Source: Parasphingorhabdus sp. (GTDB lineage: Bacteria; Pseudomonadota; Alphaproteobacteria; Sphingomonadales; Sphingomonadaceae). From it: DNA of 64,000 bases. The position numbers and the translations under genes were made by a program. Each line of letters starts with the position of its first letter. Within the stretch, counting starts at the first letter, position 1. Where the stretch lies: positions 314 to 64,313 of the forward strand of contig NZ_JBALUN010000009.1 of NCBI RefSeq assembly GCF_036963805.1. The letters are read 5' to 3'. The notes beneath the pieces were generated by a model. It saw only the letters and a program-made list of their open reading frames with translations, made no database searches and was not told where the DNA came from. Shown piece after piece: positions 32,536 through 52,217 of the stretch.

Positions 32536-33746
32536 ATGCGCTAACACTCAGAGACATTGTCGCAGAAGAACTCGGCCACAGCTATATCAGTCTGACTGGC
32601 AATTGCCGGAAGAAGGGATGCCTTAGAAAAACCCGCTGGTCGCACAAGTTGCCGGGCTTTGGTGTTCGCGTCTATGACAGCGGGCGGAAGGTCTATATCG
32701 TCCAGGCGTTGATGCAGGGCAGAACCCGGACCGTAACCATCGGCAATGCCAAGATCGTCAATCGCCGTCAGGCGATGACCGTTGCACGGCGCGTGTTGAT
32801 CCGGGCGCAAAGCGGACAAAACCCTGCTGATGAACGAATGAAGAAACGCAAGGTGCCCTTGTTTGCAGACTTTCTCAAATCCTACTGGAAAACCATGTCT
32901 CCGAAGTGGAAGCCCTCAACCCGAAAGACCCAGACCAACTATCGAACAGCCTATCTCGACAATGCCTTTACCGGGAAATTTCTGGATGAGATTGTCGAAG
33001 AAGATGTGGTGTCATGGTTTAACTATGTCACCAATCGCGGCGGGCCGGGTGCTGGAAACCGCTGTCTTGATATCCTTCGCGCTATGCTGAACAAAGCCGA
33101 GGAATGGGGGCTGCGGGAAGAAGGCAGCAATCCTTGTACATTTGTCCGCATCAACAAGCGCCGTAAATTTGAAAGATTCCTGTCTGATCAGGAACTGGAG
33201 CGGCTCGGCAATGCGCTTGATGCAGCGCGGAAAACCTATCCGCTTCATTCGGTAATCATCTATCTGTTGATATTAACTGGTTGCCGCAAATCGGAAATTA
33301 CCGGTCTGCGATGGTCGGAAGTGAAGGGGAGGCGGTTGGTATTAACCGACAGCAAGACGGGACCGCGCACGGTCTGGCTCGGGGAAGAGGCGCATATGTT
33401 GCTAACTTGCCTTCCCAGACGAAAGGGTCATCCGGAAGTATTCTGGAATCCGAGAACCCGCAAACCTATCCGTAGCATGGGTTCGTTCTGGGTGAAGATT
33501 AAGGAGGATGCGAACCTTCCTGGCGTGAGGCTTCATGATCTGCGGCACAGTTTTGCAAGCCATGCCGCAGCGCGCTCGGAGACGCTGCCAATGATTGGAA
33601 AGCTCCTTGGTCACGCGCATATCACAACTACATCGCGATATGCGCATCTGGATGATGGGCAGGTCATCGAGGCATCGCAAAGGATCGGGGACTTGTTGGA
33701 AGAGGCGATGTGCGGGAAACGGACCGACATTGGTCATGAAAGATAA
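32532..33746 (+). CDS. Tyrosine recombinase 2, paralog of recombinase 1
   Basis: LPGFGVRV; LTGCRKSEI, DSKTG, HDLRH, LGH, TSRYAH; ATGA overlap with recombinase 1. Confidence 0.95.
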   Translation: MNALTLRDIVAEELGHSYISLTGNCRKKGCLRKTRWSHKLPGFGVRVYDSGRKVYIVQALMQGRTRTVTIGNAKIVNRRQAMTVARRVLIRAQSGQNPADERMKKRKVPLFADFLKSYWKTMSPKWKPSTRKTQTNYRTAYLDNAFTGKFLDEIVEEDVVSWFNYVTNRGGPGAGNRCLDILRAMLNKAEEWGLREEGSNPCTFVRINKRRKFERFLSDQELERLGNALDAARKTYPLHSVIIYLLILTGCRKSEITGLRWSEVKGRRLVLTDSKTGPRTVWLGEEAHMLLTCLPRRKGHPEVFWNPRTRKPIRSMGSFWVKIKEDANLPGVRLHDLRHSFASHAAARSETLPMIGKLLGHAHITTTSRYAHLDDGQVIEASQRIGDLLEEAMCGKRTDIGHER

Positions 33747-34489
33747 AAAATTTTGTAGAGCATCCATAGCCCCATACCGATCATCGTCAGGTTTTCGGTG
33801 AGTGACACAAAGCCAAGCGGAACATTGCTGTCACCGCCGACACAGGCGCATTTCAGTTCACGTTTCTGTACATAAACAGCGTAGATCACCGACACCGCGC
33901 CAATGGTTCCGATGAACAGAGCGACGGGAATGGCCAGCCACATTGCTATTCCCGCGATCATCAATATCCCGGCCAGCCCCTCTCCAAACGGGTAAAGATA
34001 GCCATATCGTACCCAGCGCTGACCAAGCAGGTCATAGTTGAGGAACATGGTCGAAAAACTCTCGATATCGCGCAGCTTCAGATAAGCCAGTCCGCACATC
34101 GAAAAGGCGACAAACCACTCTGCGGTAAGTATTGAAAGCCACTGCCCGGTCGCAACAAAGGCCGCAGCCAGCGCCATCAGGAACATCATTGCGAATAGCG
34201 CAACCACCGGCTGATAGCTGATGTCGTTCTCGGCTTCTTCTGGCCTGTCCTTGCCGAAAAATATCCGCAGATCGTCAAATCCGCCAATTCGTTCGTCGTC
34301 GATAAAGGTTTGTGGAGTCGTCTCGACGTTATGTTTTTCCTTGAATGTGTCGGTTTCTGCGCGTGTCTTGAGATGGTAGTCTTCGATCTCCAAACCTTTG
34401 CGTTCGAGCAGGTCCTTTGATTTCAGGCCATAAGGACAGACATGTTTTTCCATGACCATCCGGTAAAGCTTGGCTTTGTGTTTGGTCAT
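33734..34489 (-). CDS. Glutaredoxin fused to a MauE/DoxX membrane domain
   Basis: CPYG, TTPQTFI, IGGFDDL; LKCACVGG. Confidence 0.88.
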   Translation of the reverse strand: MTKHKAKLYRMVMEKHVCPYGLKSKDLLERKGLEIEDYHLKTRAETDTFKEKHNVETTPQTFIDDERIGGFDDLRIFFGKDRPEEAENDISYQPVVALFAMMFLMALAAAFVATGQWLSILTAEWFVAFSMCGLAYLKLRDIESFSTMFLNYDLLGQRWVRYGYLYPFGEGLAGILMIAGIAMWLAIPVALFIGTIGAVSVIYAVYVQKRELKCACVGGDSNVPLGFVSLTENLTMIGMGLWMLYKIFYLS

Positions 34490-34521
34490 TCATATTCCTC
34501 TACAGCTTTGCATGAAAGACT

Positions 34522-34546
34522 AACGTGTTTAGAAGGTGGAAGTTCC
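34522..34546 (-). promoter_or_regulatory. EcfG-type promoter (glutaredoxin/MauE gene)
   Basis: GGAAC-N16-CGTT exact. Confidence 0.8.
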
Positions 34547-34574
34547 TGATTAAAAAAACCGATGTGGAGCCAAG

Positions 34575-35195
34575 ATGGCACTAAAGCTTCAAGTTTCAGA
34601 ATTGATCGTTCCAAAATCCATTGAAACGACGCTCAAATCGGGCCGGAATATCTGTCTGCGTGCAATCCGAGCTGATGACGAAGAGAATATTGACGAGGGT
34701 ATCCGCGAACTATCCGATCAGTCGCGCTATTTGCGGTTCTTTTCCGGCTTCAAGGAGGCCCCGCCTTCGGTAGTAGAAAGACTTGCCGCCGCCGATGGGA
34801 GTGATCATATTGCATGGGGGATGATTGATATGGATCATCCGGATCAAAAGGCCTTTGCTGCAGCTCACGCGATCAGAGAGAGTAGCGATGATCGTTTCGG
34901 CGAATTTTCCATCGCGGTGCTCGATGAGTATCAAGCACAGGGTTCAGGAAGAATATTGATGACCACGGTCTTTCTGCGTTGTCTCATGGAAGATATAGAC
35001 ATGCTCGACATCCAAACCTTGCACGAAAATAAGAAAGCGAAGGCACTGGTGAAATCGGTCGGAGCGGAACTGGTAAAAACGGAGGGGTCAATCGCGTTCT
35101 ATTGTTTGAATATATCGTCCGCCTTGGCGTTACTATATGACAAGCACAATGCACCTGGAATCCAGTCTGTTTTTCAGGCCTTTGGAACCCGCTAG
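34575..35195 (+). CDS. GNAT-family acetyltransferase
   Basis: LSDQSRYLRFFS; EFSIAVLDEYQAQGSG. Confidence 0.85.
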   Translation: MALKLQVSELIVPKSIETTLKSGRNICLRAIRADDEENIDEGIRELSDQSRYLRFFSGFKEAPPSVVERLAAADGSDHIAWGMIDMDHPDQKAFAAAHAIRESSDDRFGEFSIAVLDEYQAQGSGRILMTTVFLRCLMEDIDMLDIQTLHENKKAKALVKSVGAELVKTEGSIAFYCLNISSALALLYDKHNAPGIQSVFQAFGTR

Positions 35196-35208
35196 CGTTT
35201 TAGGCGTT
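35184..35208 (+). promoter_or_regulatory. EcfG-type promoter (PLD gene)
   Basis: GGAAC-N16-CGTT exact. Confidence 0.8.
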
Positions 35209-35219
35209 GGGATCAGAGA

Positions 35220-36695
35220 GTGGCGAAAAGCGCCCTGAAAGAGGCCAATATCACAAGATTGCAACTAGAGCCGGGCCAGAATTGCTGGCGAGTAGAAGAG
35301 GCTCGGCAGGCCTCCGTCATTGTCGATGGAGAAGCTTATTTCCGGTATTTGCGTCACGCGATGGCGAAGGCAAAGCGGCGGATTATACTAGCGGGATGGG
35401 ATTTTGATACCCGCGTAGAAATGAACGATACCGAAAAGGATTTGCAGGGACCGCTGAAGGTTGGTGATTTTATCGACTGGCTGGTCGCGAGAAACCCCGA
35501 TCTCCAGATATACATATTGCGCTGGGATGTCGGGGCAATCAAATCTTTCGCGCGCGGTTCGATGTTCTTCAAGGTTCTAAAATGGCAGTTCCACCCCCGC
35601 ATCCATCTGAAACTCGATGGCCAGCATCCTACGGGTGCGGCCCAGCATCACAAGATCGTTGCGATTGATGATGACGTCGCTTTTTGCGGCGGCATAGACG
35701 TGACAGCTGGGCGATGGGACACGCGGACGCATGAACCCGGGCACCGCTACCGCAAACAGCCAAACGGCGAAGATCACAGTCCATGGCATGACGCATCGCT
35801 GGCGGTCCAGGGGCCTGTCGCAACGGCGCTCGCATCCTTCGCGCAGTCTCGCTGGCACAAGGCAGGCGGAAAGGATATGATTGAAGCCAACGGTTCGCAG
35901 GATTGCTGGCCGGACGATCTGAAGCCTGACTTTAAAGAGGTCGATATCGGTATTGCGCGCACGCAGCCGGAGATGGATGATCAGGAGGATGTCCGCGAGA
36001 TAGAGCAGCTTTATATCGACCTGATTCGATCCGCAAAGCGCATAATCTATGCTGAAAGCCAGTATTTTGCCTCGCGTCATATTGCGGCTGCCATCGCCGA
36101 GCGGCTGCAGGAACAGGATGGCCCAGAAATTGTTGTCCTCAACCCGATTTCATCGGAAGGGTGGCTGGAAGAACAGGTCATGGACACTGCCAGAGCGCGG
36201 ATTTTCGCAGCCTTGCAGAAGCGGGACAGGTTTAACCGGCTCCGTTTGTATCATCCGGTTAACGAGGCTGGCGAAGAAATATATGTCCATGCCAAAATCG
36301 TGATCATCGACGATCAGGTCATCAGGATCGGCTCTTCGAATATCAACAACCGGTCAATGGGGCTCGATACCGAGTGCGACCTGGTGATTGATGCTGGTGA
36401 CGATGATGAAGGCAGTGCCGCGCGCGAACAAATTTCTCGCATTCGGAACGGTTTGCTGGCCGAACATCTGGGTTCCAGCGAAAAGAACATTGCCGAGAAA
36501 TTTGAACAGACAGGCTCGCTGATGGAAACCATTCAGCTATCCCGGAAACCGGGCCGCACATTGCGTGATTACCAGGTGCCTAACTTAGACGACACCGAGA
36601 AATGGCTCGCCGACAACGAGATACTGGATCCGGAAAGCCCCGATGAGATGTTTGCGGGCATAACCAAGCGCGGCTGGTTCAAACGTTTGGGGTAA
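35220..36695 (+). CDS. Phospholipase D-family protein
   Basis: Two HKD motifs: HHKIVAIDD and HAKIVIIDD...GSSN. Confidence 0.93.
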   Translation: MAKSALKEANITRLQLEPGQNCWRVEEARQASVIVDGEAYFRYLRHAMAKAKRRIILAGWDFDTRVEMNDTEKDLQGPLKVGDFIDWLVARNPDLQIYILRWDVGAIKSFARGSMFFKVLKWQFHPRIHLKLDGQHPTGAAQHHKIVAIDDDVAFCGGIDVTAGRWDTRTHEPGHRYRKQPNGEDHSPWHDASLAVQGPVATALASFAQSRWHKAGGKDMIEANGSQDCWPDDLKPDFKEVDIGIARTQPEMDDQEDVREIEQLYIDLIRSAKRIIYAESQYFASRHIAAAIAERLQEQDGPEIVVLNPISSEGWLEEQVMDTARARIFAALQKRDRFNRLRLYHPVNEAGEEIYVHAKIVIIDDQVIRIGSSNINNRSMGLDTECDLVIDAGDDDEGSAAREQISRIRNGLLAEHLGSSEKNIAEKFEQTGSLMETIQLSRKPGRTLRDYQVPNLDDTEKWLADNEILDPESPDEMFAGITKRGWFKRLG

Positions 36696-36740: not shown

Positions 36741-36765
36741 GGAACCAGTTGTTGGGCTCTGCGTT
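36741..36765 (+). promoter_or_regulatory. EcfG-type promoter (microprotein-DUF421-DUF202 unit)
   Basis: GGAAC-N16-CGTT exact. Confidence 0.8.
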
Positions 36766-36791
36766 GGATCATCATGAAAAGGAAATCCGTC

Positions 36792-36881
36792 ATGCGCTAT
36801 TTTTGGAGGACTGCTGCGGCCGCAATCGTGTCCGTTGCCGTTCGAACCATCATCAAAAAACTATCAAGAAAAGAACGCTGA
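36792..36881 (+). CDS. 29-aa microprotein MRYFWRTAAAAIVSVAVRTIIKKLSRKER (not in ORF track)
   Basis: AAGGA RBS, EcfG-type promoter, similarity to 48003-48158. Confidence 0.7.
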   Translation: MRYFWRTAAAAIVSVAVRTIIKKLSRKER

Positions 36882-36968
36882 AGGCACTGACAGTGATAAG
36901 GCCAAGAGTGCCTGATTTCTTCAATTTTCCTCGCCTTTCGATATGTGTTGATGTGAAGGATATCGATA

Positions 36969-37520
36969 ATGCCATGGCTTAGCGCGCCGGTTACGAATGT
37001 CCTATGGATCGCCTTGTCGGCGATCCTTGTCTATGTAGTTCTAGTTGCTTTGACCCGATTGGCCGGGATCAGAAGTTTTTCCAAAATGAGTGGCTTTGAC
37101 TTTGCGATCACAGTTGCGATCGGCTCCGTCATTGCATCAGTGGTTATTGCAAAAGACCCGCCAGTCGCAAATGGTGCAGCGGCCCTCGTGATGTTGTTCG
37201 CTATCCAGATCGGATTTGCAGCATTGCGCAGCCGGTTTTCCGGCATAGAGGCTCTGGCTGACAACAAGCCGCGCCTCATCATGATCGGCAATGAAATTCA
37301 GTTTGATCAGCTCAAAAAATCGCAGATGACCGAAAGCGATCTGATGGCTAAGTTACGAGAAGCAAACGTTTTCAGCTTTTCTCAGGTTACAGCGGTCATC
37401 GCGGAAACGACTGGCGATGTTTCAGTTTTACATTCGTCGCAGGAAGATGCCAGGCTGCACCGGAAAATCACAACAGACGTGATTGGCGCCGACAGGCTTG
37501 GCAATGATCGCTTCGAATAG
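36969..37520 (+). CDS. DUF421/YetF membrane protein
   Basis: GIRSFSKMSGFDFAITVAIGS; AETTGDVSVL. Confidence 0.9.
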   Translation: MPWLSAPVTNVLWIALSAILVYVVLVALTRLAGIRSFSKMSGFDFAITVAIGSVIASVVIAKDPPVANGAAALVMLFAIQIGFAALRSRFSGIEALADNKPRLIMIGNEIQFDQLKKSQMTESDLMAKLREANVFSFSQVTAVIAETTGDVSVLHSSQEDARLHRKITTDVIGADRLGNDRFE

Positions 37521-37541: not shown

Positions 37542-37976
37542 ATGAGTGACGGATCAAAGAACAATGAAGATCTTGCCGAAGACCGGACGGATCTTGCTGA
37601 TGATCGAACCGATTTGGCGGAGAAACGGACAGATTTCGCAGAAGACCGGACGGTTATGGCAAATGAACGAACCTTTGCCGGATGGATGCGAACAGGCTTG
37701 GCCGCTGTCGGAATCGGACTTGGTTTCAATGCCCTGTTTGGCGAGTTACAGCCCTTCTGGCTTCCACGCGGGATCGCTACTGCATTCATCCTGATCGGTG
37801 TTTTCATATTTTATGCGGCACAGAAAAACGGATGCGCGGTTCATGAAAGACTGGAATCGCATAGCTCCGAACCATTGCCCGGCGCAAATCTGCGTGCGAC
37901 CGCTATGGCAATGAGCACAGCCAGCCTTTTGCTTGTCTTCGGATTATGGTTGATGGAAGTGGAAAGCGGAGGATAG
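37542..37976 (+). CDS. DUF202/YidH membrane protein
   Basis: RTVMANERTFAGWMRTGLA. Confidence 0.9.
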   Translation: MSDGSKNNEDLAEDRTDLADDRTDLAEKRTDFAEDRTVMANERTFAGWMRTGLAAVGIGLGFNALFGELQPFWLPRGIATAFILIGVFIFYAAQKNGCAVHERLESHSSEPLPGANLRATAMAMSTASLLLVFGLWLMEVESGG

Positions 37977-38063
37977 GGCCTCGGTCAACCTCTTACGATA
38001 GCATAGCCCGCTGTTTCGCTGGCAAAACTACGGTCTTTCTTTTGATGGTCGTTGTGTTTGCGA

Positions 38064-38477
38064 TCAGGACAGTCTGAAGAGCACATCCACTTCTTCATGG
38101 TATTCTCCACCCGGCGCATCCGTGTTGCGCAGTATCTTCGCCTTTGGTCGAAAGCATGATCGGTTCTCCGCGATCCATCAAAGCAAGTCGTCGAGAGGAA
38201 TTCCAACCTCATCGCGCTGTACGCTAGAATAGCAATAAAAATGCAGGCCATCGATATCGATCAGTGCATAAGTTCCGGCGTGATCGCCTTCCTCTACCCG
38301 GATACTATTCTCGATTTCACCAACAGTATCACCGTTCAGATTGACCACTTCCTTGCCTTCAAAATGATTGTCAATTTCCTTAAGGGGAGGCGATTTTGAT
38401 GCCCACATCATCCAGCGCGCTGATGATGCGAATTCCGATATCCCGATGAAAGCGATGCCTTCTAATGTGTTTTTCAC
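38064..38477 (-). pseudogene. Hypothetical gene with a possible in-frame TGA at 38178-38180
   Basis: Reading frame stays open for 37 more codons past the stop (LLxWIAENRSCF...). Confidence 0.35.
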
Positions 38478-38607
38478 TTATAGCAGATTTTGTTGAAGTA
38501 CCCTAGTTCGCGGACTGAATCTCTCGATACGGAGGAGAAAAATCCAAAAAATATTTAGTTTGTATTGATAAATCTGGAACGAATGGGACGTTGCCGAGTA
38601 GTTTGTT

Positions 38608-38712
38608 TAGATGAGGTAGTACCCCCGAATAAATGCCCCATCTGAACTAGAAAGACCGGAAAATTTGCCGCACTCCTGACCTCCCGTCGTGCCTGCAAAT
38701 TTTCCGGTCTAA
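38608..38712 (+). ncRNA. Candidate EcfG-dependent sRNA with C-rich loops
   Basis: GGAAC-N17-GT upstream at 38576-38599; hairpin with ACCCCC loop; perfect 16-bp stem 38653-38668/38695-38710 enclosing GAC-CTCCC-GTC. Confidence 0.6.
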
Positions 38713-38730: not shown

Positions 38731-38760
38731 AAAAAAGGCCGGGTGCATTGCCCGGCCTTC
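38731..38760. terminator. Intrinsic terminator of the 38781-39008 gene
   Basis: AAGGCCGGG/CCCGGCCTT stem with an A6 tract. Confidence 0.8.
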
Positions 38761-38780
38761 CTGGATGCGGATCTGGAAAA

Positions 38781-39008
38781 CTATTCTTCGGACGGCATCT
38801 CTACGTCAACGTCCGGCACATCAACGGTCACTTCTTTTGTGCCAACTTCAACATCTGCAGTTTCAACATCAACTTCTGGCATCTCGCCAGCATCTGCAGA
38901 AACATCAACATCCATGGACGGCAATTCGCCTTCATCTGTCACTTCGGCTTCACATGCGGTCAGTGCCAGTCCGGCAATCACAGTTGCTGCAATAGAAATC
39001 TTTTTCAT
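38781..39008 (-). CDS. Small acidic lipoprotein
   Basis: LTAC lipobox; D/E/V-rich mature part. Confidence 0.8.
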   Translation of the reverse strand: MKKISIAATVIAGLALTACEAEVTDEGELPSMDVDVSADAGEMPEVDVETADVEVGTKEVTVDVPDVDVEMPSEE

Positions 39009-39039
39009 CTCGAACTCCCTTTCATTGGTTCAAGCGACC

Positions 39040-39064
39040 AACGATAGAAAAGGAGACCGGTTCC
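39040..39064 (-). promoter_or_regulatory. EcfG-type promoter (acidic lipoprotein)
   Basis: GGAAC-N16-CGTT exact. Confidence 0.8.
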
Positions 39065-39076
39065 AATATTTTTCGA

Positions 39077-39814
39077 TTATTCTCTACCCAGTCGCATGCG
39101 GAAAGCGTCGAGGTGAAAATAGCTGGGATCAAATTGGCAGATTTCTGCCAAACGGCTGGCATCACGAAAGACGATCCAGCCTTTTTCTCGATCGAGCAAA
39201 TCATCCTTTTCCAGTTGCCGTAGAACGCGATTGGTGTGGATTGGAGTCAGGCCCAGCGCGTCGGCAATGACAGTCTGTGTCAGCGGCATGCGAAAGCCAT
39301 CGCGCGTGCCTTCGTCGATGATCTGTATCCGCCGGTGGAGTTCGAGAAGGAAATGACCAATCCGCTCGCGCGCGGTTTGCTGTCCATTGCGCACGATCTG
39401 TTCGCGCAGAAATGCCTCTTCCTGAACCTGCATCCACCAGAAAGCCAAAGTCAATTTACCGGATTCGGTCAGTAATCGCCGGAATTCGGAAGGTTCCACC
39501 GACAGGGTCTCCAGTTCGGTTATCGAGAGAACCGAGTGATCAGCTTCGGCTGCAACCAGCACCTGCAAATCGAAAATATCGCCTGGCAGAAGCACGTTCA
39601 ATATCTGCCGGCGTCCGTCTTCCAGGGTTTTATACCGCACGGCCCAGCCTTGTTTGATGACCAGAACGCTATCCATCTGTTGGCCGGCGTCAACGATATC
39701 CAGATTGCGGTCGAAGCGTTTTTCTTTCCCTTCTAAGCCCATAACCCCATCCTGCACCACCTCATCAAGGTCCGCGTAAAATGAGATGCGGCGGAGCAGC
39801 GCCCTTTTGGCCAT
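39077..39814 (-). CDS. Crp/Fnr-family regulator
   Basis: DGRRQILNVLLPGD; ARERIGHFLLEL; PLTQTVIADALGLTPIHTNRVL. Confidence 0.92.
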   Translation of the reverse strand: MAKRALLRRISFYADLDEVVQDGVMGLEGKEKRFDRNLDIVDAGQQMDSVLVIKQGWAVRYKTLEDGRRQILNVLLPGDIFDLQVLVAAEADHSVLSITELETLSVEPSEFRRLLTESGKLTLAFWWMQVQEEAFLREQIVRNGQQTARERIGHFLLELHRRIQIIDEGTRDGFRMPLTQTVIADALGLTPIHTNRVLRQLEKDDLLDREKGWIVFRDASRLAEICQFDPSYFHLDAFRMRLGRE

Positions 39815-41435: not shown

Positions 41436-41480
41436 CTTTTGAATGAACCCCGAGTGAAAATGAACAACAAGGAGTCCGCA

Positions 41481-44199: not shown

Positions 44200-44640
44200 T
44201 CATTCCGGTTTCATCACGTTATTCGTGGGCAAACCCAGGCTGCAAAAATTTCTGAAAATCTCGCTCGTTTCGTTGCTCACATCTTTGCGACCAAGTATCT
44301 TATCCAACGGATTATCCGATGAAATTTTGCCAGATTGAAATAATATGTTGGCCATATGCCAATCCGGAAATTCGCGTTCTGGTTTGCCGTCTTTGGAGAG
44401 AATGACGATACCATTATGACGCGGATCATTGGCAATGATCGCCATGCAATTGTTCACGCTTTCCGGCGCACCTTCGAGCAGCTGCATGAAATTGGTGCCA
44501 TTGAAAACGAGTAGACCTGTAATTTCGTTTAGTTCGTTATTGCGCTGGGCGGATTCAACAATTTTCAAGAAGTCAGCCTCTTGCAGGCCCGCCTTGGCGG
44601 TGCTGATGTAGACCAGCGATCTGATGGAATTTTGCGACAA
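44200..44640 (-). CDS. Single-domain BLUF blue-light sensor
   Basis: LVYIS, RNN...ITGLL, FMQLLEG, DPRH, FPDWHM; likely TTG start. Confidence 0.9.
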   Translation of the reverse strand: MSQNSIRSLVYISTAKAGLQEADFLKIVESAQRNNELNEITGLLVFNGTNFMQLLEGAPESVNNCMAIIANDPRHNGIVILSKDGKPEREFPDWHMANILFQSGKISSDNPLDKILGRKDVSNETSEIFRNFCSLGLPTNNVMKPE

Positions 44641-44745
44641 CCGATACTTCCTTACACCCAGCGCACGGTATGCCATGCTAAACCGTAACGCCTGCTAGCA
44701 CAGGATTTTACATTTTACACTAACATAGGTTAGGGGGCGATACCG

Positions 44746-46092
44746 TCACTCAACCGGGCGGTTATTGTCCAGCAAATCTGGTTCGGACTGCCCGGATCGT
44801 TCGGAATCCACCAGATGTTCGACGTGATCTTCTGGTGAAACGTCGAAATCGGTTTCGGACGCGGTTGGTTTCGTTTGTTTGGGGGCAGAGGCACCCTTTT
44901 TGGAGCCAGATCTTTGTACTACCTGATCAGGTAACCCGCCGTCAAAACGCAGCCGGTAAATCGGCTCCGGCAGAGCAAAACCTTCATCTTCCAGCGCATT
45001 TTTCGTTACGCGGATTGCCGCGCCCCGTGCTTTCTTGAAATCGCTTTCGCGCTGATCCACCCAGCCGTGAAAAGCGATGATAATGTTGGAATCGCCCACT
45101 TCCCTGATTTCCGCCGTGGCTTCGGGATCATCGAGCACATAGTCCTGACCGTTAATCGCGCGCAGGCCCGTATCGACCGCCGCGGCCGGGTCATCATCAG
45201 CGTCCACGCCCAGCTCAAAGGTAAAACGCCTTTGCGGGTTGCGGGTATAGTTTAGTATTTCGGCTTTGAAGACGGTTGCATTGGGTATGCGCAAATGATT
45301 GCCCTCAAGCGTCATCAATATCGTCGCGCGGGACGTCAGACGAACTACGCGACCTTCCTGCTGACCGACCAGGACATGATCGTTTGCGCGAAATGGCTGC
45401 CGGATGCTCAGCATGATACTGGAGATATAGTTATCTACGGTATCGCGCAGCGCGAAGCCAACCGCGAGGCCGATAACGCCGGCACCGCCAAGTACTGCGC
45501 CAATCGCGGCAGTCGCCCCGAGTATGTCTAGTGCGATGAATATCCCCAGGCCAATGAAAATCACCCGCACCGAACTGGCAACGAGTTCGGCCAGAAAGAC
45601 ATTGGGCGTGATCTTTTGCCAGAACGATTTCAGCGAGGCGATGAAATGGCCAAATAATCCAACCAGTATTGCCACCAGCAGTGCAACACCTATCAACGGC
45701 AGCGCAGCAAGAAATTGGTCGAAACTGCTGCTGAGATCATCAACAACCGGCTCGACATTGGAGCCGACAGACAAATCGCGTTCGAAATCAGTTTCGACAG
45801 TGACAACACCGGACACGCGCTGCGCAATAGCGCTGGCCCGGTCTATCGCAGCCTGATCTTCGAGCGTTCCGGAAAGGCGCACCACACCGGAATCGACCGC
45901 GACCCTGATATTGTCAAAACCGTCAATCTCGCCAAAAATTCCCCGGAGGCGCTCGGCTATAACCTCATCATCTTCCCCAACAGTTTCCGCGTCTATCGCT
46001 GGCTGCGTGGGTGCTGCTGCCTCTTCCGCGTCAACTTGAGCGGCAAGCTTTTGAGTAGGAGCGCCAAGTATCGCAACTGCCGCGGCGAACAT
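44746..46092 (-). CDS. BON-domain MscS mechanosensitive channel
   Basis: VRVAVDSGVVRLSG; GFALRDTVDNYISS; IRQPFRANDHV. Confidence 0.9.
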   Translation of the reverse strand: MFAAAVAILGAPTQKLAAQVDAEEAAAPTQPAIDAETVGEDDEVIAERLRGIFGEIDGFDNIRVAVDSGVVRLSGTLEDQAAIDRASAIAQRVSGVVTVETDFERDLSVGSNVEPVVDDLSSSFDQFLAALPLIGVALLVAILVGLFGHFIASLKSFWQKITPNVFLAELVASSVRVIFIGLGIFIALDILGATAAIGAVLGGAGVIGLAVGFALRDTVDNYISSIMLSIRQPFRANDHVLVGQQEGRVVRLTSRATILMTLEGNHLRIPNATVFKAEILNYTRNPQRRFTFELGVDADDDPAAAVDTGLRAINGQDYVLDDPEATAEIREVGDSNIIIAFHGWVDQRESDFKKARGAAIRVTKNALEDEGFALPEPIYRLRFDGGLPDQVVQRSGSKKGASAPKQTKPTASETDFDVSPEDHVEHLVDSERSGQSEPDLLDNNRPVE

Positions 46093-46142: not shown

Positions 46143-46167
46143 AACGCTCTTCCAAAAGAAAAGTTCC
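46143..46167 (-). promoter_or_regulatory. EcfG-type promoter (BON-MscS gene)
   Basis: GGAAC-N16-CGTT exact. Confidence 0.8.
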
Positions 46168-46247
46168 GGGTCAAAAATAAAATATATTTGGGAACGCTCA
46201 TAGGGGCTGGCGGTTGATTGGGTAGACTTCCAAAAAAAGAGGACATT

Positions 46248-46688
46248 ATGACAAACGAACAAACCAACACCATCCTGAACGACGTTCTGGAAACGCTGAT
46301 CGATTCAACCGACGGCTATGAAAAAGCCGCCGAAGTAGCTGATCGCCCGGCTTTTAAGCAACTTTTTGGGCGCCGTGCTGCCTCACGTCGTGCGATGGCT
46401 GCTGATGTACGCAACCACATTGTCGAACTTGGCGGAACGCCTGATGACGATGGTTCGATCCTGGCGAACATGCACAGGACATTTCTGTCAATCCGTGCTG
46501 CGGTGCAGGACAATGACAATGCCGCGATCGAAGCGGTCGACAATGGCGAAAAACATCTGCGCGAACAATTTGAAGACGCACTGGAAAACGATGACCTGAG
46601 CCCGTCCGCGCGCGCTTTGCTGAAGAAATATCAGGGCGAACTCCGCGCTGATGGCCGGCTGATCGATCAACTGGAAGACGCTGCGTAA
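46248..46688 (+). CDS. PA2169/DUF2383 four-helix-bundle protein
   Basis: LNDVLETLIDSTDGYEKAAE; GGTPDDDGS; GEKHL. Confidence 0.88.
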   Translation: MTNEQTNTILNDVLETLIDSTDGYEKAAEVADRPAFKQLFGRRAASRRAMAADVRNHIVELGGTPDDDGSILANMHRTFLSIRAAVQDNDNAAIEAVDNGEKHLREQFEDALENDDLSPSARALLKKYQGELRADGRLIDQLEDAA

Positions 46689-46727
46689 TCCAACCGCGCA
46701 AAACCCCACGAATGAAAGGAATTTAAC

Positions 46728-46913
46728 ATCGAATATGGTATTATTGGTTTAGTCATCCTTGCTTTGGATATCTGGGCGCTGCTGAGCGTTTGGGGTAGCG
46801 GGTCATCTGTCGGAAGCAAGATTATCTGGAGCGCGATCATCCTGATCCTTCCGCTAGTCGGACTAATTTTATGGTACTTTATTGGACCAAAAGGTAGTGC
46901 TGCTGCTGTATAG
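46728..46913 (+). CDS. PLDc_N-domain small membrane protein; ATC at the expected start
   Basis: EYGIIGLVILALDIWALLSVW...KIIW..IILILPLVGLILWYFIGP; AAAGGA RBS upstream of ATC; no in-frame ATG. Confidence 0.65.
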   Translation: MEYGIIGLVILALDIWALLSVWGSGSSVGSKIIWSAIILILPLVGLILWYFIGPKGSAAAV

Positions 46914-47044
46914 CAAACTATAACCACATTGTGGGTGATCTACCTGGATCACAAACTTAGCCCCGGCAGCCTCGCTGTCGGGGTTTTTTATGATGATATC
47001 AGATACGGAACGGAACCAATATCTGGTTCCAGCGTATGTCGAGA

Positions 47045-47926
47045 ATGGAAAACTCGGTAGACACATCACTAAACACGCTCGAAATCCTGATTGAGCAGCT
47101 CAAATCCATGTGGGAGGGGCTGGTCCAGCTAATGCCCAGCCTTGTCATTGCGATCCTGTTCCTGATTGTGACCTGGATCATCGCCCGATTTGCGAGCAAA
47201 ATCGCAGATCGCATCACTGCCAAGACCAATATGCGGCCCTCTCTCCAGGAATTGATCGACACTCTCGTCCGGATCAGTATCTGGACGGTTGGCTTGTTGG
47301 TCTCATTGACGATATTGCTTCCGGGATTGACGCCGGGCAGTCTTGTTGCCGGGCTTGGTATCGGTACCGTCGCTATCGGTTTCGCGTTCCAGGATATTTT
47401 CGAGAATTTCCTCGCCGGAATTCTGATTATGTTGCGCGAAAAGATGCGCATCGGTGATTATATTAAATGTGACGATATTGAAGGTAGGGTTGAAAAGATA
47501 CTGCTGCGCGAAACGCATGTTCGCAAGCTATCCAATGAATTGAACATCGTGCCGAATTCCATCCTTTTTAAAAATCCGGTTGAGATACTCACTGATAAGG
47601 ACCAGCGTCGCCACGATGTCGTTGTCGGCGTGTCCTATGATACCGATCTGGAAAACGCGCAGGCAGTCATCAGAAAAGCCGTTGAGGAAACCGAAGTCGT
47701 GGACACGAACAGAACGATTGATGTTTTCGCCTGCGAGTTCAATTCAAGTTCGGTGGACTACAAGGTCAGGTGGTGGTCCGGATCCGGGCAGCGCGAGATG
47801 CATGACAGCCGCGATCAGGTGGTCCGCAACATCAAGCGAGCGCTTGACGATGCAGGCATTGAAATTCCGTTCCCGTACATCACGCATACTTTCAAGGAGA
47901 AGATCCCACTCGCTTCCAATGATTGA
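47045..47926 (+). CDS. MscS-family mechanosensitive channel
   Basis: GFAFQDIFENFLAGILI; GIEIPFP; GGAAC-N16-CGTA at 47012-47036. Confidence 0.92.
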   Translation: MENSVDTSLNTLEILIEQLKSMWEGLVQLMPSLVIAILFLIVTWIIARFASKIADRITAKTNMRPSLQELIDTLVRISIWTVGLLVSLTILLPGLTPGSLVAGLGIGTVAIGFAFQDIFENFLAGILIMLREKMRIGDYIKCDDIEGRVEKILLRETHVRKLSNELNIVPNSILFKNPVEILTDKDQRRHDVVVGVSYDTDLENAQAVIRKAVEETEVVDTNRTIDVFACEFNSSSVDYKVRWWSGSGQREMHDSRDQVVRNIKRALDDAGIEIPFPYITHTFKEKIPLASND

Positions 47927-48241: not shown

Positions 48242-48691
48242 CTACGCGACCTTGTCCATTTCCGCCGGTTTGCGCTCGTCAAACTTCCGGAGAAGTTCGC
48301 TGGCCTTTTCCTCGCTCAAACCTTTTTTCGCCACCGGGAAGATATCATTCTCTTCTTCTTCCATATGGTGTTCCAGCCGATGTTTCAGCGTCTTGAACCG
48401 CGTCAGCCAGCCGGTATCGTCGAAATCCTTGTCGGACAATTCTTCGAAATAATCGTCGATTTCCTTGTGCTCGGCAACCGAATGGCGGCCTTCATCCTGC
48501 ATTTCCGGACGGCCCAGCATTTCGGCATATAGAGACTGCCCCTCCGCATTGGCATGCGCGGACACGTCTATGCGAAGTGTTTCGAATGCCTCTCGCCGTT
48601 CCTTGGCGTCGCCGCTCGTATCGGCAACACGCTCGAGCATCTCGCGATGCTTGTCATGGTCTTCTTTCAGACGAATAAAAATATCAGTCAT
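48242..48691 (-). CDS. Hemerythrin-domain protein
   Basis: EDH, HANAE, EHKEID, LEHHMEEEE. Confidence 0.88.
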   Translation of the reverse strand: MTDIFIRLKEDHDKHREMLERVADTSGDAKERREAFETLRIDVSAHANAEGQSLYAEMLGRPEMQDEGRHSVAEHKEIDDYFEELSDKDFDDTGWLTRFKTLKHRLEHHMEEEENDIFPVAKKGLSEEKASELLRKFDERKPAEMDKVA

Positions 48692-48733
48692 TTAGTTTTC
48701 CTTTTGTTGGGGGTTTGGGGTGCGCTAGCTTCG

Positions 48734-49141
48734 TCACGCCGCGCGGAGGGATTTCTCAATCTGATCGATCGGCGAGTTGGTCAGGGTTTTGTCGAGTTCA
48801 AGAATGATCTTGTCTTTCACTTCCTGATGTAAAACCGGACGTACTTCGCCGAGCGTATCGGGGTCTGCGACGAAAACAAGATGATCATAATCTCCGTCAT
48901 GCGCGCGATTGTAAAGATGGTGCGCCAACTGCTTCGAGAAGGTCGCTTCATCAGTCTCCTGCTGAGAGGATTCCGGAACATAGGAACCAGAGGGTCCCTC
49001 TAACGCCAAATCCTTCGGCTCCAGTTCACCCTCTGATTTGAGACTTACATCGCCGGTCTTGTCGGTGTTCCGGAACATCTTCGCGCCCGCGCCGGTGGCG
49101 ACCACCACGAGGCTGTCTTTCGGAAATCTGGTATTTCCCAT
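48734..49141 (-). CDS. Host-attachment / baeRF12-family protein
   Basis: LVVVATGAGAK; EATFSKQLA; LVFVADPDTLGEVR; LDKTLTN. Confidence 0.85.
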   Translation of the reverse strand: MGNTRFPKDSLVVVATGAGAKMFRNTDKTGDVSLKSEGELEPKDLALEGPSGSYVPESSQQETDEATFSKQLAHHLYNRAHDGDYDHLVFVADPDTLGEVRPVLHQEVKDKIILELDKTLTNSPIDQIEKSLRAA

Positions 49142-49173: not shown

Positions 49174-49198
49174 AACGAATGGGGATGGAAAAGGTTCC
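49174..49198 (-). promoter_or_regulatory. EcfG-type promoter (host-attachment-hemerythrin unit)
   Basis: GGAAC-N16-CGTT exact. Confidence 0.8.
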
Positions 49199-49248: not shown

Positions 49249-49464
49249 TCAAGTTAGGGGGTTTGCTCTTGCCAGCGCCAGATCACGGACAAATTTTTCA
49301 TATTCGATTTTCCGTCCCGCCGCGTCCGGAATACGGAGCAAATAGGAGGGATGGACGGTGATCAGCAATCTCTGATTGTCCTCCAGATCGAAAAACTGCC
49401 CGCGATATCGCGACAGCGTGATCTTTTTCCCGATCAAGCAATGTGCCGCCGTGCTGCCCAGAAC
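49249..49464 (-). pseudogene. 3' remnant of a UdgX-family uracil-DNA binding protein gene
   Basis: VLGSTAA...RG...ITVHPSYLLR...FVRDL; N-terminal part absent. Confidence 0.8.
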
Positions 49465-49880
49465 CGGTTCTCGACCCGCAATTTGCGTGCGACCTCGACC
49501 AGTTGCTCCATCGTGTGGTCCGGACTGCGGATAATCCCCGACGACAGGAAAAGCCCCTCGATATAATTTCGCTTGTAAAAATCCAGCGTGAGATCGACAA
49601 TCTCCTGCACGGTGAACGCCGCGCGGCGGACATTGCTCGACGTCCGGTTGATGCAATAGAGGCAATCGAACATGCAGTAATTGGTCATCAGGATTTTGAG
49701 CAGCGAGATACAGCGACCATCCGGCGCATAGCTGTGGCAGATGCCCATGCCTGTCGTCGATCCGATACCGCCGGATTTCAGACTATTGCGCTTCACCGAC
49801 CCGCTGGAAGCACAGGAAGCATCATATTTTGCGGCGTCCGCGAGGATCGCCAGCTTTTCGGCGCGATTCATTTTGGGCAT
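49461..49880 (-). pseudogene. 5' remnant of a DNA modification/repair radical SAM gene
   Basis: ADAAKYDASCASSG, GICHSYAPDGRCISLLK, CMFDCLYC; truncated after RVENRF. Confidence 0.85.
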
Positions 49881-49898
49881 CCGCTAGCATTATCACAT

Positions 49899-49913
49899 GT
49901 TCATGATATGTTC
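49899..49913. promoter_or_regulatory. Alphaproteobacterial LexA box
   Basis: GTTC-N7-GTTC, 19 bp upstream of the radical SAM start codon. Confidence 0.8.
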
Positions 49914-49987
49914 CAACAAAACGTCATGCGGTGGCAACTATTCCGCCTGTCGTCGGTTGTTGCGGGAGATCGGGGAGAAAAAGCCAA

Positions 49988-50497
49988 ATGTTTTCAGATG
50001 ACACAACAATCAACCTGATCCTCAAGATCGCAATCCTTGGACCGGTCGCGCTGGTCTGGGTAGTGATCAACGTGCGTGTTGTCGGATTGCGCTCATTCTC
50101 CAAAATGACCGCCTTCGATTTTGTAACGACGGTGGCAATCGGATCACTGCTGGCGACCGCGATGACGGCTAGTTCCTGGCCGGGCTATTTGCAGGCAGTG
50201 GGCGGAATCAGTGCCTTGCTGCTTGCCCAATTTGTCATCAGCAAATTTCGCAGGGCATCGGATAGCGCCAAAGACGCTATATCCAATGATCCCGTTTGGC
50301 TGTTCAGGGAGGGGGAATTTCTGGAAGACAACATGGACTGTGCAAGGATTACCAGAGACGATCTTTTCGGGAAAATGCGCGAGGCAAACGCGCTCAAGAT
50401 TTCCGATGTTCACGGTATCATCCTCGAACCCACTGGTGATATTTCGGTGCTCCATGGCGGGGAACCGGATAATGAAATTCTGCCGGGCAGGGATTGA
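49988..50497 (+). CDS. DUF421/YetF membrane protein (second copy)
   Basis: GLRSFSKMTAFDFVTTVAIGS; LEPTGDISVL; GCAAC-N16-GGTT at 49934-49958. Confidence 0.9.
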   Translation: MFSDDTTINLILKIAILGPVALVWVVINVRVVGLRSFSKMTAFDFVTTVAIGSLLATAMTASSWPGYLQAVGGISALLLAQFVISKFRRASDSAKDAISNDPVWLFREGEFLEDNMDCARITRDDLFGKMREANALKISDVHGIILEPTGDISVLHGGEPDNEILPGRD

Positions 50498-50624
50498 CCC
50501 GTCGGTTTCGGTGCAGTGGTAAATTGCATCCCTAGACTATTTTGGAACCATGCCGGACGTCGCTTGTTGGTGATTGCAGAGGGGCAATTTGTTGTCTCTT
50601 CATCTAGGAATGAAGGAATACAAA

Positions 50625-50891
50625 ATGAGTAAACTAACCATTTTCACCGCGACGGCAGCAGCTCTGGCTTTGACCGCATGTGCGCAAGAAGACACAAGCG
50701 GCGCAGAAACAGCAACGGAAGTAGAAGCGCAGGAAGCTGAAGTAGCAGCCGATGAGGCGGAAGCCGCCGCGGATGCAGCTCCGACCGAAGCTGGCGAAGA
50801 AGCCATGGAAGAAAAAGCCGAAGCGCTGGAAGACAAGGCCGATGTTCTTGAAGAGAAAGCCGACGAAGAAGAAGGCGTTCTCGCACAATAA
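50625..50891 (+). CDS. Small acidic Ala/Glu-rich lipoprotein
   Basis: LTAC lipobox; GGAAC-N16-TGTT at 50544-50568; terminator hairpin 50922-50950. Confidence 0.8.
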   Translation: MSKLTIFTATAAALALTACAQEDTSGAETATEVEAQEAEVAADEAEAAADAAPTEAGEEAMEEKAEALEDKADVLEEKADEEEGVLAQ

Positions 50892-50954
50892 TTCAGAATT
50901 TCCCTTTTGGGGAACTAGAGGAGGGCCAATCGAGCAATTCGGTTGGCCCTTTTG

Positions 50955-52217
50955 CTATTTATTGGCACCGACAACCTTCCTTGATCGCGCTTTCAGGTCA
51001 TTGATGTCCTTTTCGTGCGTGATCGAACTCTCGGCTCTCACCAGTGCATCGCGGCTGGTATCGTCTGCAGTGTCAGAAAATATTTCCGGCCACGAACTTT
51101 TAAGCGCGAGCAATACCAGCTGGATTCGCTGTTGCACCTCAATATTGCCGCGTCCGTCCCTTGCAATCTTCGTGAAAAAATCATCAAACAAGCTGGTGAG
51201 CTCGATTTCAGCACAATGCAGCCTGGAATAGCGAACATCAGGATCTGATAGTTCCGCGCGCGTTTCGGCGAAAGCCTCAAAACAGCGCAGGCCACTGTTG
51301 ATGACGGCGATCGCAGTACCCGGATCATTCACTGCGGGTGACAGCGCGCGGGATGCGATTTCGGAAAGCACAACCAGACCAAATCTGGGGTCCTGTTCAA
51401 AACTCCGGTCGCGTTCGATCAGGATTGTGTCCCGGAATGGCTGTGGATCAATCTCGAGCGGTTCGCCCCCTTCCAGATAGAGCAGCTCCCGGGCGGGATA
51501 AATCAGTTGGCCGGGATACACTGCCAGATGAACCGTCACGTCATGCTTGTCTGCTGCTTCCTGCAACGCGGCCATATCAATTGTGGTCACCAGCCCGCTT
51601 GCCGTCTCGCAGCTCACAGCCACCGCATCTTCCGGTACAGCCACCGCTGGTTCCGCGCCCAGGTAAGGGTTTTCACCATGCCATTTCAGCGCTTTTGATG
51701 CCGCCTTTTCCACCCGTTCAATCAGGTCGCGCATTCGTCCAAAGGTCGACAGCTGCTGGATCCAGCTGATCAGCGTGCCCGTAATGATGATGATCACCGC
51801 AATAGTCGCGAAAAACAGCAGAACACGGCCTTTGTCACCATAGAAATTCGCAGACAATCCGATGATGCCCACGATACTGAACAGAAAGGTTCCCAGAAAA
51901 GTCGACAGAGCATTCTGTGATCGGTCGTCGGCCAGCATCAGCGTAATGGTCCGCGGCGTGGCCGTATTGGTTGCGGAGCTATAGGCGGCAATCATGATCG
52001 AAACGGAAAAGGCGATCACCGCCAGCATGCTCGACGCCAATATCGTCAGCAAATCACCGACCGATCCGCTCGCGAGCTCCAGATCATAATTATAGGGAAT
52101 GAGCGGACCGATCCACCTGGCCGCGACCACCGCGACAATTGCGGCCAGGCAGAACAACAATGCCCGAAACCATATTCTTTCGGGCAGTCGAAAAATGAAT
52201 TTTTTGAACGCCAGCAT
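50955..52217 (-). CDS. DUF2254 membrane protein
   Basis: ILASSMLAV..FS.SIM; ATPR; LSTFLGTF; IASRALSPAVNDPGTA. Confidence 0.9.
   Translation of the reverse strand: MLAFKKFIFRLPERIWFRALLFCLAAIVAVVAARWIGPLIPYNYDLELASGSVGDLLTILASSMLAVIAFSVSIMIAAYSSATNTATPRTITLMLADDRSQNALSTFLGTFLFSIVGIIGLSANFYGDKGRVLLFFATIAVIIIITGTLISWIQQLSTFGRMRDLIERVEKAASKALKWHGENPYLGAEPAVAVPEDAVAVSCETASGLVTTIDMAALQEAADKHDVTVHLAVYPGQLIYPARELLYLEGGEPLEIDPQPFRDTILIERDRSFEQDPRFGLVVLSEIASRALSPAVNDPGTAIAVINSGLRCFEAFAETRAELSDPDVRYSRLHCAEIELTSLFDDFFTKIARDGRGNIEVQQRIQLVLLALKSSWPEIFSDTADDTSRDALVRAESSITHEKDINDLKARSRKVVGANK

Follow-up and report, generated by a model that had tools for sequence, protein, structure and literature searches.

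Can a complete general stress response (GSR), with its sensors, its regulatory switch and its target genes, be the cargo of mobile DNA? The question is raised by a locus of a marine Parasphingorhabdus sp., in which genes for PhyR (a response regulator), NepR (an anti-sigma factor) and EcfG (a sigma factor) lie next to conjugation genes. The UbiB protein of the host belongs to a 90%-identity cluster that bears the name Parasphingorhabdus (P. cellanae and others). For free-living Alphaproteobacteria, the PhyR-NepR-EcfG system is generally regarded as a core trait, conserved and chromosomal. The window, i.e. the whole stretch of DNA that was analysed, comprises 64,000 nt (contig C9, positions 314-64313; C1, C2, C7, C11, C15, C20 and C28 denote other contigs of the same assembly, which has 3.9 Mb, 67 contigs and 52% GC). 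The block under study is an 18.5-kb cargo at window positions 33734-52217. An earlier note had read it as a self-contained island with its own sigma cascade, located between the recombinases of an ICE (integrative and conjugative element) and a tRNA junction, and as a portable regulon. For comparison, 36 congeneric species (G001-G036) were scored for PhyR and EcfG, and wider comparisons involved 36-40 congeners. In our view the block is probably an intact and complete GSR cluster that is carried as cargo of mobile DNA and is the second set of its host; it would be portable, and it could add to or rewire the stress response of a recipient.

The block encodes a complete switch

Pfam searches recovered all domains that the earlier note had named, i.e. 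those of PhyR, NepR and EcfG, of a GAF-PAS-HWE kinase, of a Crp regulator, of a BLUF protein and of the stress-type proteins (Table 1). About 17 stress-type genes accompany the regulators and encode channels, membrane proteins, a phospholipase D (PLD), a hemerythrin, a DUF883 protein, a PNPOx-like protein and lipoproteins. The PNPOx-like gene, a weakly matching GNAT gene and the two genes for small acidic lipoproteins are additions to the original list. The block genes align with the orthologues of congeners over the full length. The term "sigma cascade" had to be given up, because the block contains one sigma factor and one partner switch, and no cascade of sigma factors.

The PhyR protein reaches 352.7 bits with the NCBIfam model NF006623 (cut-off 240), and its sigma-like N-terminal domain, with sigma2- and sigma4-like parts (PF22029, E = 1e-24), is fused to a C-terminal receiver domain. 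It aligns end to end with the Caulobacter PhyR (3N0R, E = 6.5e-81); the receiver motif LADIQLADGSSG is retained, and the region around the phospho-acceptor aspartate, LVLADIQLADGSSGIDAVKDI, is identical to that of 3N0R in the alignment. The ecfG gene is convergent with phyR and encodes sigma regions 2 and 4. It adjoins nepR, the open reading frame (ORF) of which is directly upstream and overlaps the ecfG start by 8 nt; the true start of NepR is probably the methionine at about 44018. NepR matched no NCBIfam model, and the best NCBIfam sigma models for EcfG remained below their cut-offs. The kinase scores 27 bits with the PhyK equivalog model NF051872, for which the cut-off is 750, and is thus not a PhyK by this measure. 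It is a candidate PhyR kinase, by its HWE family (PF07536) and its position only.

EcfG-type promoters are concentrated in the block

To quantify EcfG-type promoters, the strict motif GGAAC-N16/17-CGTT was counted in a promoter block of 18.8 kb, and eight composition-matched permuted motifs served as controls. Eight strict sites were found, compared with about 0.36 expected (Poisson p = 5e-9), versus zero or one for each control motif. The richest other 19-kb stretch of the genome contains at most four strict sites, and the genome-wide total of 75 is unremarkable, as the controls range from 17 to 134. All eight sites are in the correct orientation and 24-75 nt upstream of an ORF start. Four relaxed sites are similarly placed, i.e. 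before nepR (GGAAC-N17-GTT, 58 nt upstream of the ORF) and before the genes for the DUF2383 protein, MscS and the second lipoprotein. EcfG-type promoters, which the island EcfG is predicted to recognise, precede at least 12 transcription units of the island, and sensors, switch and putative targets are together in one block, as had been proposed. Two host paralogues of island genes have the same strict motif, i.e. an MscS gene on C2 and a lipoprotein gene on C1.

In the characterised pathway, as outlined in three papers (PMC4814048, PMC5898713, PMC4551977), a kinase leads to phosphorylated PhyR, NepR is titrated, and EcfG promoters are served. By analogy, stress or light signals would act through the HWE kinase, and possibly the BLUF protein, on the phosphorylation of PhyR, phosphorylated PhyR would sequester NepR, and the freed EcfG would transcribe the GGAAC-N16/17-CGTT promoters in front of at least 12 island units. 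If the ICE were conjugated, sensors, switch and regulon would be transferred jointly, and GSR-less congeners would be among the possible recipients.

The block is on the element side of a split tRNA gene

The position of the block between a pair of tyrosine recombinases on the left and a tRNA-Arg(CCG) gene on the right was borne out (Table 1). The complete tRNA is ICE-borne and is separated by 123 nt from a 44-nt fragment of the broken host gene, and housekeeping genes follow to the right of this junction. In 11 congeners an intact tRNA-Arg(CCG) gene abuts nth, and homology to the window begins only at 53023-53029; accordingly, synteny with the housekeeping flank does not extend to the block. 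The 3′ half of the host tRNA (positions 33-77) was found at C20:5838-5882, beside a P4-like integrase gene, and both host halves share the 12-nt core CTGCCTTCGGAG. The anticodon stem of the ICE-borne tRNA differs from the host type. Judged from these comparisons, the ICE is inserted in the host tRNA-Arg(CCG) gene at the anticodon loop and has brought a replacement tRNA. The host depends on the element for its tRNA-Arg(CCG), because the only intact copy in the assembly is ICE-borne. Direct repeats of the tRNA 3′ end were not found inside the window, and therefore no att site lies between the ICE backbone and the block.

A GSR-less congener (G029; 95% and 93% amino acid identity for Nth and UbiB, respectively) has a related Trb-type ICE (TrbE 68%) at the same tRNA. 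Its design is the same, with a full ICE-borne tRNA and broken host 5′ fragments from the same core. Only 5.5 kb lie between TrbI and the tRNA, with LysR, AraC, EamA, SDR and CGNR genes, and this slot contains neither a recombinase pair nor a GSR gene. As a related ICE at the same tRNA lacks the recombinases and the GSR genes, this comparison of the two sequences identifies the slot as one for cargo, with the block as an addition to the ICE and not resident chromosome.

The converse, i.e. a resident chromosomal GSR locus next to which the ICE has inserted, would be in accord with the GC fraction of the block (0.49-0.53 versus 0.52 for the genome) and with the chromosomal location of the gene set in seven congeners (see below). 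We nevertheless regard it as very improbable. The broken host tRNA separates the block, on the side of the element, from the region in which the homology to the 11 congeners starts, and the ICE-borne tRNA and the right-end segment of the recombinase module lie between block and junction. The cluster of the congeners is at least 100 kb from this tRNA and has different conserved flanks, G029 has an ICE at the site without the block, and no ICE-free relative with the block beside tRNA-Arg(CCG) was found.

Three further observations concern this site. In G029 (C1 of that genome, about 368.0-368.4 kb; L108/L109) two partial 5′ copies of the tRNA lie after the ICE tRNA, and the one closer to it starts at CTGCCTTCGGAG, which suggests repeated integration at the site. 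At C11:50521-50860 the contig end has a 14-nt tRNA-Arg 3′ remnant and a flank of 135 nt, which matches the flank of the tRNA half on C20 at 96% identity; the remnants on C11 and C20 suggest a composite, repeatedly used insertion hotspot. In G005 (L045), which is ICE-free at this tRNA, a 67% nucleotide match to the region of a PRC-barrel-like ORF (38067-38365) lies within 0.4 kb of the 3′ side of tRNA-Arg(CCG), so that a homologue of one island gene is present at the same tRNA without an ICE.

The immediate carrier is probably a recombinase module nested in the ICE

The anatomy of the locus has three nested levels: a Trb-type ICE contains a recombinase module, which in turn contains the GSR cargo. 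The relaxase, the coupling protein and the mating-pair-formation genes (trbB, E, J, L, F, G and I) that mark an ICE are present, and the backbone ORFs in the window, i.e. relaxase, TraG, seven Trb genes and both recombinases, are of full length. The module of 21.5 kb fills the distal cargo slot between the DUF2274 gene and the ICE tRNA.

The arrangement of recombinase pair, cargo and right-end segment occurs three times in the genome (C9, C1 and C7), with different cargo each time. The copy on C1 belongs to a sister Trb ICE (C1:1-76952), the backbone of which is 80-84% identical at the nucleotide level, with 83-96% amino acid identity of the Trb proteins. The ICEs on C9 and C1 have different DNA in three slots (between relaxase and traG, between traG and trbB, and after the recombinases). 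Their backbone homology stops at 31231, and they share a 94-nt segment after the third slot (window 52654-52746). The third module (C7:103015-115509; L106, L107) has about 10 kb of defence-like cargo (an AAA_13/SMC-like ATPase, a NERD nuclease) and adjoins TrwB/TrwC-type conjugation genes, not this backbone; its right end corresponds to window 52602-52721 at 72% identity and has the same position relative to the recombinase pair. The left motif of about 30 nt lies just upstream of recombinase 1, and the sequence further upstream varies with the context. In another genome (L051) a pair with 84% nucleotide identity lies beside housekeeping genes and has the left motif; its second recombinase gene is broken. 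Because left motif and right end are common to copies with different cargo and context, the immediate carrier of the block is, as far as these alignments tell, a recurrent module of tandem recombinases, cargo and right end that is nested in the ICE.

The recurrence of the module gives weight to another explanation, i.e. that the block resides in a separate integrative element, Tn554-like or integrative and mobilisable, which moves by itself and landed inside or beside the ICE. The ends are conserved in three genomic contexts, including the TrwB/TrwC-type element on C7 and the housekeeping genes next to L051, the related ICE of G029 lacks the module, and the recombinases of the two sister ICEs have only 52-55% amino acid identity, compared with 83-96% for the Trb proteins. 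On the other hand, both sister ICEs hold the module at exactly the same backbone position, and the C1 ICE has no other integrase near its att repeat, which fits a pair that is the integration module of the ICE. A target duplication or terminal repeats have not been established. We therefore treat a self-moving element as a genuine possibility, though not as the probable one; with the conjugation genes on one side of it and attR on the other, the block would travel with the ICE either way.

Alternatively, ICE and module may be immobile relics; the block would then be a second set of GSR paralogues fixed in the chromosome, comparable to the duplicates of Sphingopyxis granuli TFA. This would be in line with the lack of a second ICE-borne block among the 36-40 congeners and in the protein database, with the broken second recombinase of L051, which shows that such modules decay, and with the tandem or composite structure at the tRNA-Arg site, where the additional tRNA remnants on C11 and C20 point to an old, rearranged hotspot. 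We consider it unlikely, because all backbone ORFs in the window are of full length and the sister ICE in the same genome indicates recent activity of the family. The dependence of the host on the ICE-borne tRNA explains retention and is no argument for decay.

Two side observations concern the cargo of the ICEs. The other slots of the ICE on C9 (6797-8095, 11257-12018 and 14127-20936) encode a HipA-family kinase toxin, a LuxR-type autoinducer-binding regulator, a glutamate symporter and an RND efflux system (OEP, AcrB, HlyD). In the sister ICE on C1, the recombinase pair is followed by 36 kb of other cargo, and an ssb gene lies after the right-end segment; this ICE is integrated at tRNA-Lys(UUU), and an exact 46-nt repeat of the tRNA 3′ end is at C28:250-295.

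The host has a second GSR locus

The earlier note had suggested a search for a second phyR/nepR/ecfG set and trees of both. A second set is indeed present on C11, with PhyR, EcfG and NepR proteins that are 73%, 78% and 65% identical to those of the island. The order of genes is the same: a lipoprotein region, an HWE kinase gene (59%), phyR, ecfG-nepR, and the genes for BLUF (45%) and DUF2383 (60%), followed by a PLD remnant of 61 codons (C11:12010-12192) that ends this non-ICE locus. Since this set exists and the congeners lack the block at tRNA-Arg, the island is neither the sole phyR/ecfG locus nor syntenic in ICE-free relatives, and the reading of the earlier note is upheld in this respect.

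The C11 locus is flanked by katE and dps. Similarity to G019 (77-80% at the nucleotide level) extends across the GSR genes only, the katE side was found only in G012, G019 and G036, and none of 13 congeners has the other flank or C11:25-32 kb. No mobility genes were seen on C11. The accessory flanks weaken the view that C11 is the native locus. A third, EcfG-like sigma factor of 162 amino acids is encoded on C2; it is unlinked and shared with GSR-positive species, which argues for an ancestral GSR. Cross-talk between the island set and the C11 set is likely, judged from the 78% identity of the two EcfG copies and the strict motif at host paralogues.

In a tree of PhyR and EcfG the island copy is separated from C11 and forms a lone deep branch, with 71-78% identity to all 20 congener copies and to C11. 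The C11 copy groups with G019 and G036 (94-95% amino acid identity), and most congeners form another group. A recent intragenomic duplication of the C11 set that was then captured by the ICE would account for the shared core order of kinase, phyR, ecfG-nepR, BLUF and DUF2383. The identities are, however, only 45-78%, the genes for Crp, the PNPOx-like protein, DUF883 and BON-MscS are absent from C11 and have the same order as the island in other congeners, and the branching of the tree is at odds with a duplicate, so that this origin is improbable in the extreme.

The island set resembles a chromosomal cluster of the genus

Where does the island copy come from? Its best match among 5.8 billion proteins has 81% identity and is on a 1.4-kb contig, and a search of genome contigs with the island PhyR yielded only five distant matches (54-57%, Hyphomonadaceae and similar). 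A metagenome contig matches 49461-52486 at 86.5% nucleotide identity, in a different context.

On the chromosome of seven congeners (G001, G003, G005, G016, G022, G028 and G033) lies a cluster of about 15.5 kb, the flanks of which are conserved and which has no ICE genes nearby. It comprises genes for DUF421, hemerythrin, lipoprotein, Crp, kinase, DUF883, PhyR, EcfG-NepR, BLUF, BON-MscS, DUF2383, DUF202, PLD, GNAT and DUF2254. A PNPOx-like gene is present in two of the seven (absent or a remnant in the rest), and MscS in five. A core that extends from the lipoprotein gene to the ORF following DUF2383 has the same gene order as the island, and the outer genes are shuffled. In addition, the island contains the genes for glutaredoxin-MauE, the baeRF12/host-attachment protein, the PRC-like ORF, a second DUF421 protein and a second lipoprotein. 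By gene content, therefore, the set appears to be not a new assembly but a copy of a chromosomal cluster that is typical of one Parasphingorhabdus clade. The identities between island and congener clusters are uniform (48-81%), which suggests that the whole cluster was captured from one unsampled lineage.

PhyR and EcfG are absent from 16 of the 36 congeneric species, according to a protein search and a Pfam search with PhyR_sigma2; 14 of these 16 genomes are at least 99% complete. So many GSR-less species are unexpected for a sphingomonad genus. In the ubiB-ubiE tree, the clade nearest to the host (79-82% nucleotide identity) has nine scored species, each of them GSR-less, and the main GSR-positive clade is farther away (77-78%); the identities of the nth flank agree.

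One might generalise that the GSR of this genus is a plug-and-play accessory trait, a cluster of 15-19 kb that is repeatedly lost and regained, and that the island copy represents such a vector at work. This would fit the GSR-less state of the nearest clade of the host, the location of C11 in accessory DNA that is absent from that clade, and the C11 type that is shared with G019 and G036 against the housekeeping tree; both GSR sets of the strain could be acquisitions, and a tandem-recombinase cargo module nested in ICEs could have served for their capture. We offer it as a tentative and rather doubtful extension. An observation in its own right concerns G019 and G036: the ubiB-ubiE tree places them as sisters of G012, while their PhyR and EcfG are only about 74% identical to those of G012 and group with C11 (loci L002, L013, L027 and L028), which hints at replacement of the GSR locus or its transfer within the genus.

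Several points weigh against a portable and self-contained cluster. PhyT-like phosphotransferases or single-domain receivers are required for PhyR signalling in some sphingomonads; because the island encodes neither of the two, it may not be fully self-sufficient. EcfG-type motifs were not found upstream of phyR, the kinase-crp unit or the BLUF gene. Contig C9 ends 313 bp to the left of the window, so that the left end of the ICE and its attL are putative and are placed only by way of the candidate left junction on C20; contig breaks fall at repeats, and the left end is not closed. The integrase situation of the C1 ICE, mentioned above, would allow the recombinase pair to be the ICE integrase and not a nested element. 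An ICE-borne GSR was found in no other genome among the 36-40 congeners and not in the protein database, and the right-end segment has one weak match among 300 genomes of the order (G302, 73%), with no related ICE or recombinase pair nearby; a spread of the block would therefore be conjectural.

Comparison with known systems

The switch resembles the PhyR-NepR-EcfG (ECF15) switches of Methylobacterium extorquens, Sphingomonas melonis Fr1 and Caulobacter (3N0R, 3T0Y, 4G97) in its domains, in the overlap of nepR and ecfG, in the adjacent HWE kinase gene and in its promoters. It differs in that switch, sensors and about 17 target-type genes are inside an ICE, that it is a second set, and that the kinase is not a PhyK equivalog. 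Paralogues are known from Sphingopyxis granuli TFA (PhyR1/2, NepR1/2, EcfG1/2; PMC7083833 and PMC9303464) and from Methylobacterium extorquens (multiple EcfG and NepR; PMC4814048). As in strain TFA, two PhyR/NepR/EcfG sets are present in one sphingomonad, and the same questions of hierarchy and cross-talk arise; from the TFA paralogues, as described there, the island set differs by its mobile-element context and its own regulon.

The backbone is similar to ICEMlSymR7A and to Tn4371-type Trb ICEs in the RlxS-like relaxase, the SLT gene, TraG, trbB-I followed by a distal DUF2274 gene, and the integration at a tRNA. In contrast to these, the relaxase is below the RlxS cut-off, the tRNA is split at the anticodon loop and accompanied by a whole replacement tRNA instead of a rebuilt 3′ end, and tandem recombinases and cargo are nested after the DUF2274 gene. 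The module recalls Tn554-family and other tandem tyrosine-recombinase elements, with two adjacent overlapping tyrosine recombinases at one end, one-sided cargo and conserved ends, which is an analogy only; as a difference, P4-type arm-binding domains are present in the module recombinases.

ICE3 of Sphingopyxis granuli TFA has been described as a stress-response ICE with a sigma-70-family factor that is induced under several stresses. Its cargo concerns lipid metabolism, resistance, uspA and similar functions; PhyR is not mentioned, and EcfG appears in the reference list only (bioRxiv 10.64898/2025.12.11.693706). In PLSDB, 34 plasmid records contain PhyR homologues, all with <60% identity, and 27 of the 34 are on replicons typed as non-mobilisable, many of them megaplasmids or chromids. 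Plasmid-borne PhyR occurs in Dinoroseobacter shibae (153 kb, NC_009956.1), Roseobacter litoralis (NC_015741.1), Ketogulonicigenium and Gemmobacter, and none of these replicons is an ICE. In the literature searched, no paper with PhyR, NepR or EcfG on an ICE was found, and the 2025 preprint on ICE3 came closest; the parts, i.e. GSR regulon and Trb ICE, are known, and the arrangement was not found described.

The locus departs from the view of the GSR as a core trait in three ways: a complete copy resides in a conjugative element, 16 of the 36 species are GSR-less, and a GSR-less close relative has a related ICE at the same tRNA site. As a natural system, it could be used to ask if a global sigma regulon is transplantable as a single unit, and it allows the study of insulation versus cross-talk of two co-resident partner switches. 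It is also a caution that two PhyR/EcfG loci in one genome are not necessarily a case of simple paralogy.

Genes of the block and minor features

Table 1. Features of the ICE, the recombinase module, the GSR cargo and the tRNA junction (window positions).
Feature	Position	Strand	Evidence and remarks
RlxS-like relaxase	5036-6781		562 bits to NF041267, below RlxS cut-off of 850
TraG coupling protein	8708-10717		
Trb-type type IV secretion operon (TrbB, E, J, L, F, G, I)	21776-30967	+	Pfam T2SSE, CagE_TrbE_VirB, TrbL, VirB8, CagX, TrbI
DUF2274, last backbone gene before the module	30978-31202	+	PF10038, E 1.5e-29
Left-end motif of module, CGCACACCGTACGCAATTGCATTGCAGTAAG	31206-31236	+	common to copies on C9, C1, C7 and to L051 of another genome
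Tyrosine recombinase 1, arm-binding and catalytic domains	31294-32535	+	PF00589, PF13356; homologous pairs on C1, C7
Tyrosine recombinase 2, overlaps recombinase 1	32514-33746	+	PF00589, PF13356; 39% identical to recombinase 1
Glutaredoxin-MauE fusion, first cargo gene	33734-34489	-	PF00462, PF07291; strict EcfG-type promoter 34522-34546
GNAT-like protein, weak match	34575-35195	+	PF00583, E 9e-4, below cut-off; 48-52% homologues in chromosomal GSR cluster of congeners
Phospholipase D-family protein	35220-36695	+	PLDc_2, PLDc; strict promoter 35184-35208
DUF421/YetF membrane protein, copy a	36969-37520	+	PF04239; strict promoter upstream, 36741-36765
DUF202 membrane protein	37542-37976	+	PF02656
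Acidic lipoprotein, 75 amino acids	38781-39008	-	signal peptide and LTAC lipobox; strict promoter 39040-39064, 56 nt upstream
Crp/Fnr-family regulator, downstream of kinase, same direction	39077-39814	-	cNMP_binding, HTH_Crp_2; 75-79% homologues at same position in congeners
GAF-PAS-HWE sensor histidine kinase, candidate PhyR kinase	39814-41313	-	PF01590, PF08447, PF07536; 59% paralogue on C11
Pyridoxamine-5′-phosphate-oxidase-like (PNPOx-like) stress protein	41439-41966	+	PF16242, E 1e-41; strict promoter 41411-41435
DUF883 (ElaB/YqjD-like) protein	42042-42356	-	PF19029; strict promoter 42365-42389
PhyR anti-anti-sigma response regulator	42483-43259	+	PF22029, PF22233, PF00072; NF006623
EcfG-type ECF sigma factor	43268-43867	-	Sigma70_r2, Sigma70_r4_2, PhyR_sigma2; 78% identical to C11 copy
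NepR anti-sigma factor	43860-44081	-	PF18557, 41.7 bits (cut-off 25.7); relaxed promoter 44115-44139
BLUF blue-light sensor protein	44200-44676	-	PF04940, E 7e-28
BON-domain MscS-family channel	44746-46092	-	PF04972, PF00924; strict promoter 46143-46167
DUF2383 ferritin-like protein	46218-46688	+	PF09537; relaxed promoter 46191-46215
MscS mechanosensitive channel	47036-47926	+	four MscS Pfam domains; relaxed promoter 47012
Hemerythrin	48242-48691	-	PF01814
baeRF12/host-attachment protein (Host_attach)	48734-49141	-	PF18856/PF10116; strict promoter 49174-49198
DUF421/YetF membrane protein, copy b	49931-50497	+	PF04239, PF20730
Second small acidic lipoprotein	50574-50891	+	LTAC lipobox; relaxed promoter 50544; 72% paralogue at C1:383458 with its own strict motif
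DUF2254 membrane protein, last cargo gene	50955-52217	-	PF10011, E 6e-90
Right-end segment of module	52602-52746	+	86% identical to C1:75656-75749; 72% to C7:103015-103135
Complete ICE-borne tRNA-Arg(CCG)	52829-52905	-	ARAGORN; Rfam 69.4 bits; sole tRNA-Arg(CCG) in assembly
Broken host tRNA-Arg(CCG), positions 1-44, right junction	53029-53072	-	identical to 5′ 44 nt of the tRNA in 11 congeners

The genes for the baeRF12/host-attachment protein and for hemerythrin (48242-49141) are likely one operon. Five ORFs of 175, 86, 88, 77 and 191 amino acids (38743-39270, 46667-46927, 37985-38251, 36749-36982 and 49443-50018, respectively) were rejected as probably not genes, with odd composition and no Pfam match; the lipoprotein ORF of 75 amino acids is likely the real gene, rather than the ORF of 175 amino acids on the opposite strand. 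Conservation in tblastn searches at 38.7-39.0 kb and 46.7-46.9 kb is real despite the doubtful ORFs. An Rfam scan of 31.0-53.5 kb gave the tRNA as the sole genuine match, and an anti-hemB match was discarded as a chance hit (E = 0.097, 23.9 bits versus 49.5). An intergenic region of about 140 nt (38576-38712), which has no Rfam match, can form a long hairpin, and the 5′ part of the DUF202 gene contains four tandem repeats of 21 nt, i.e. seven codons (37568-37673).

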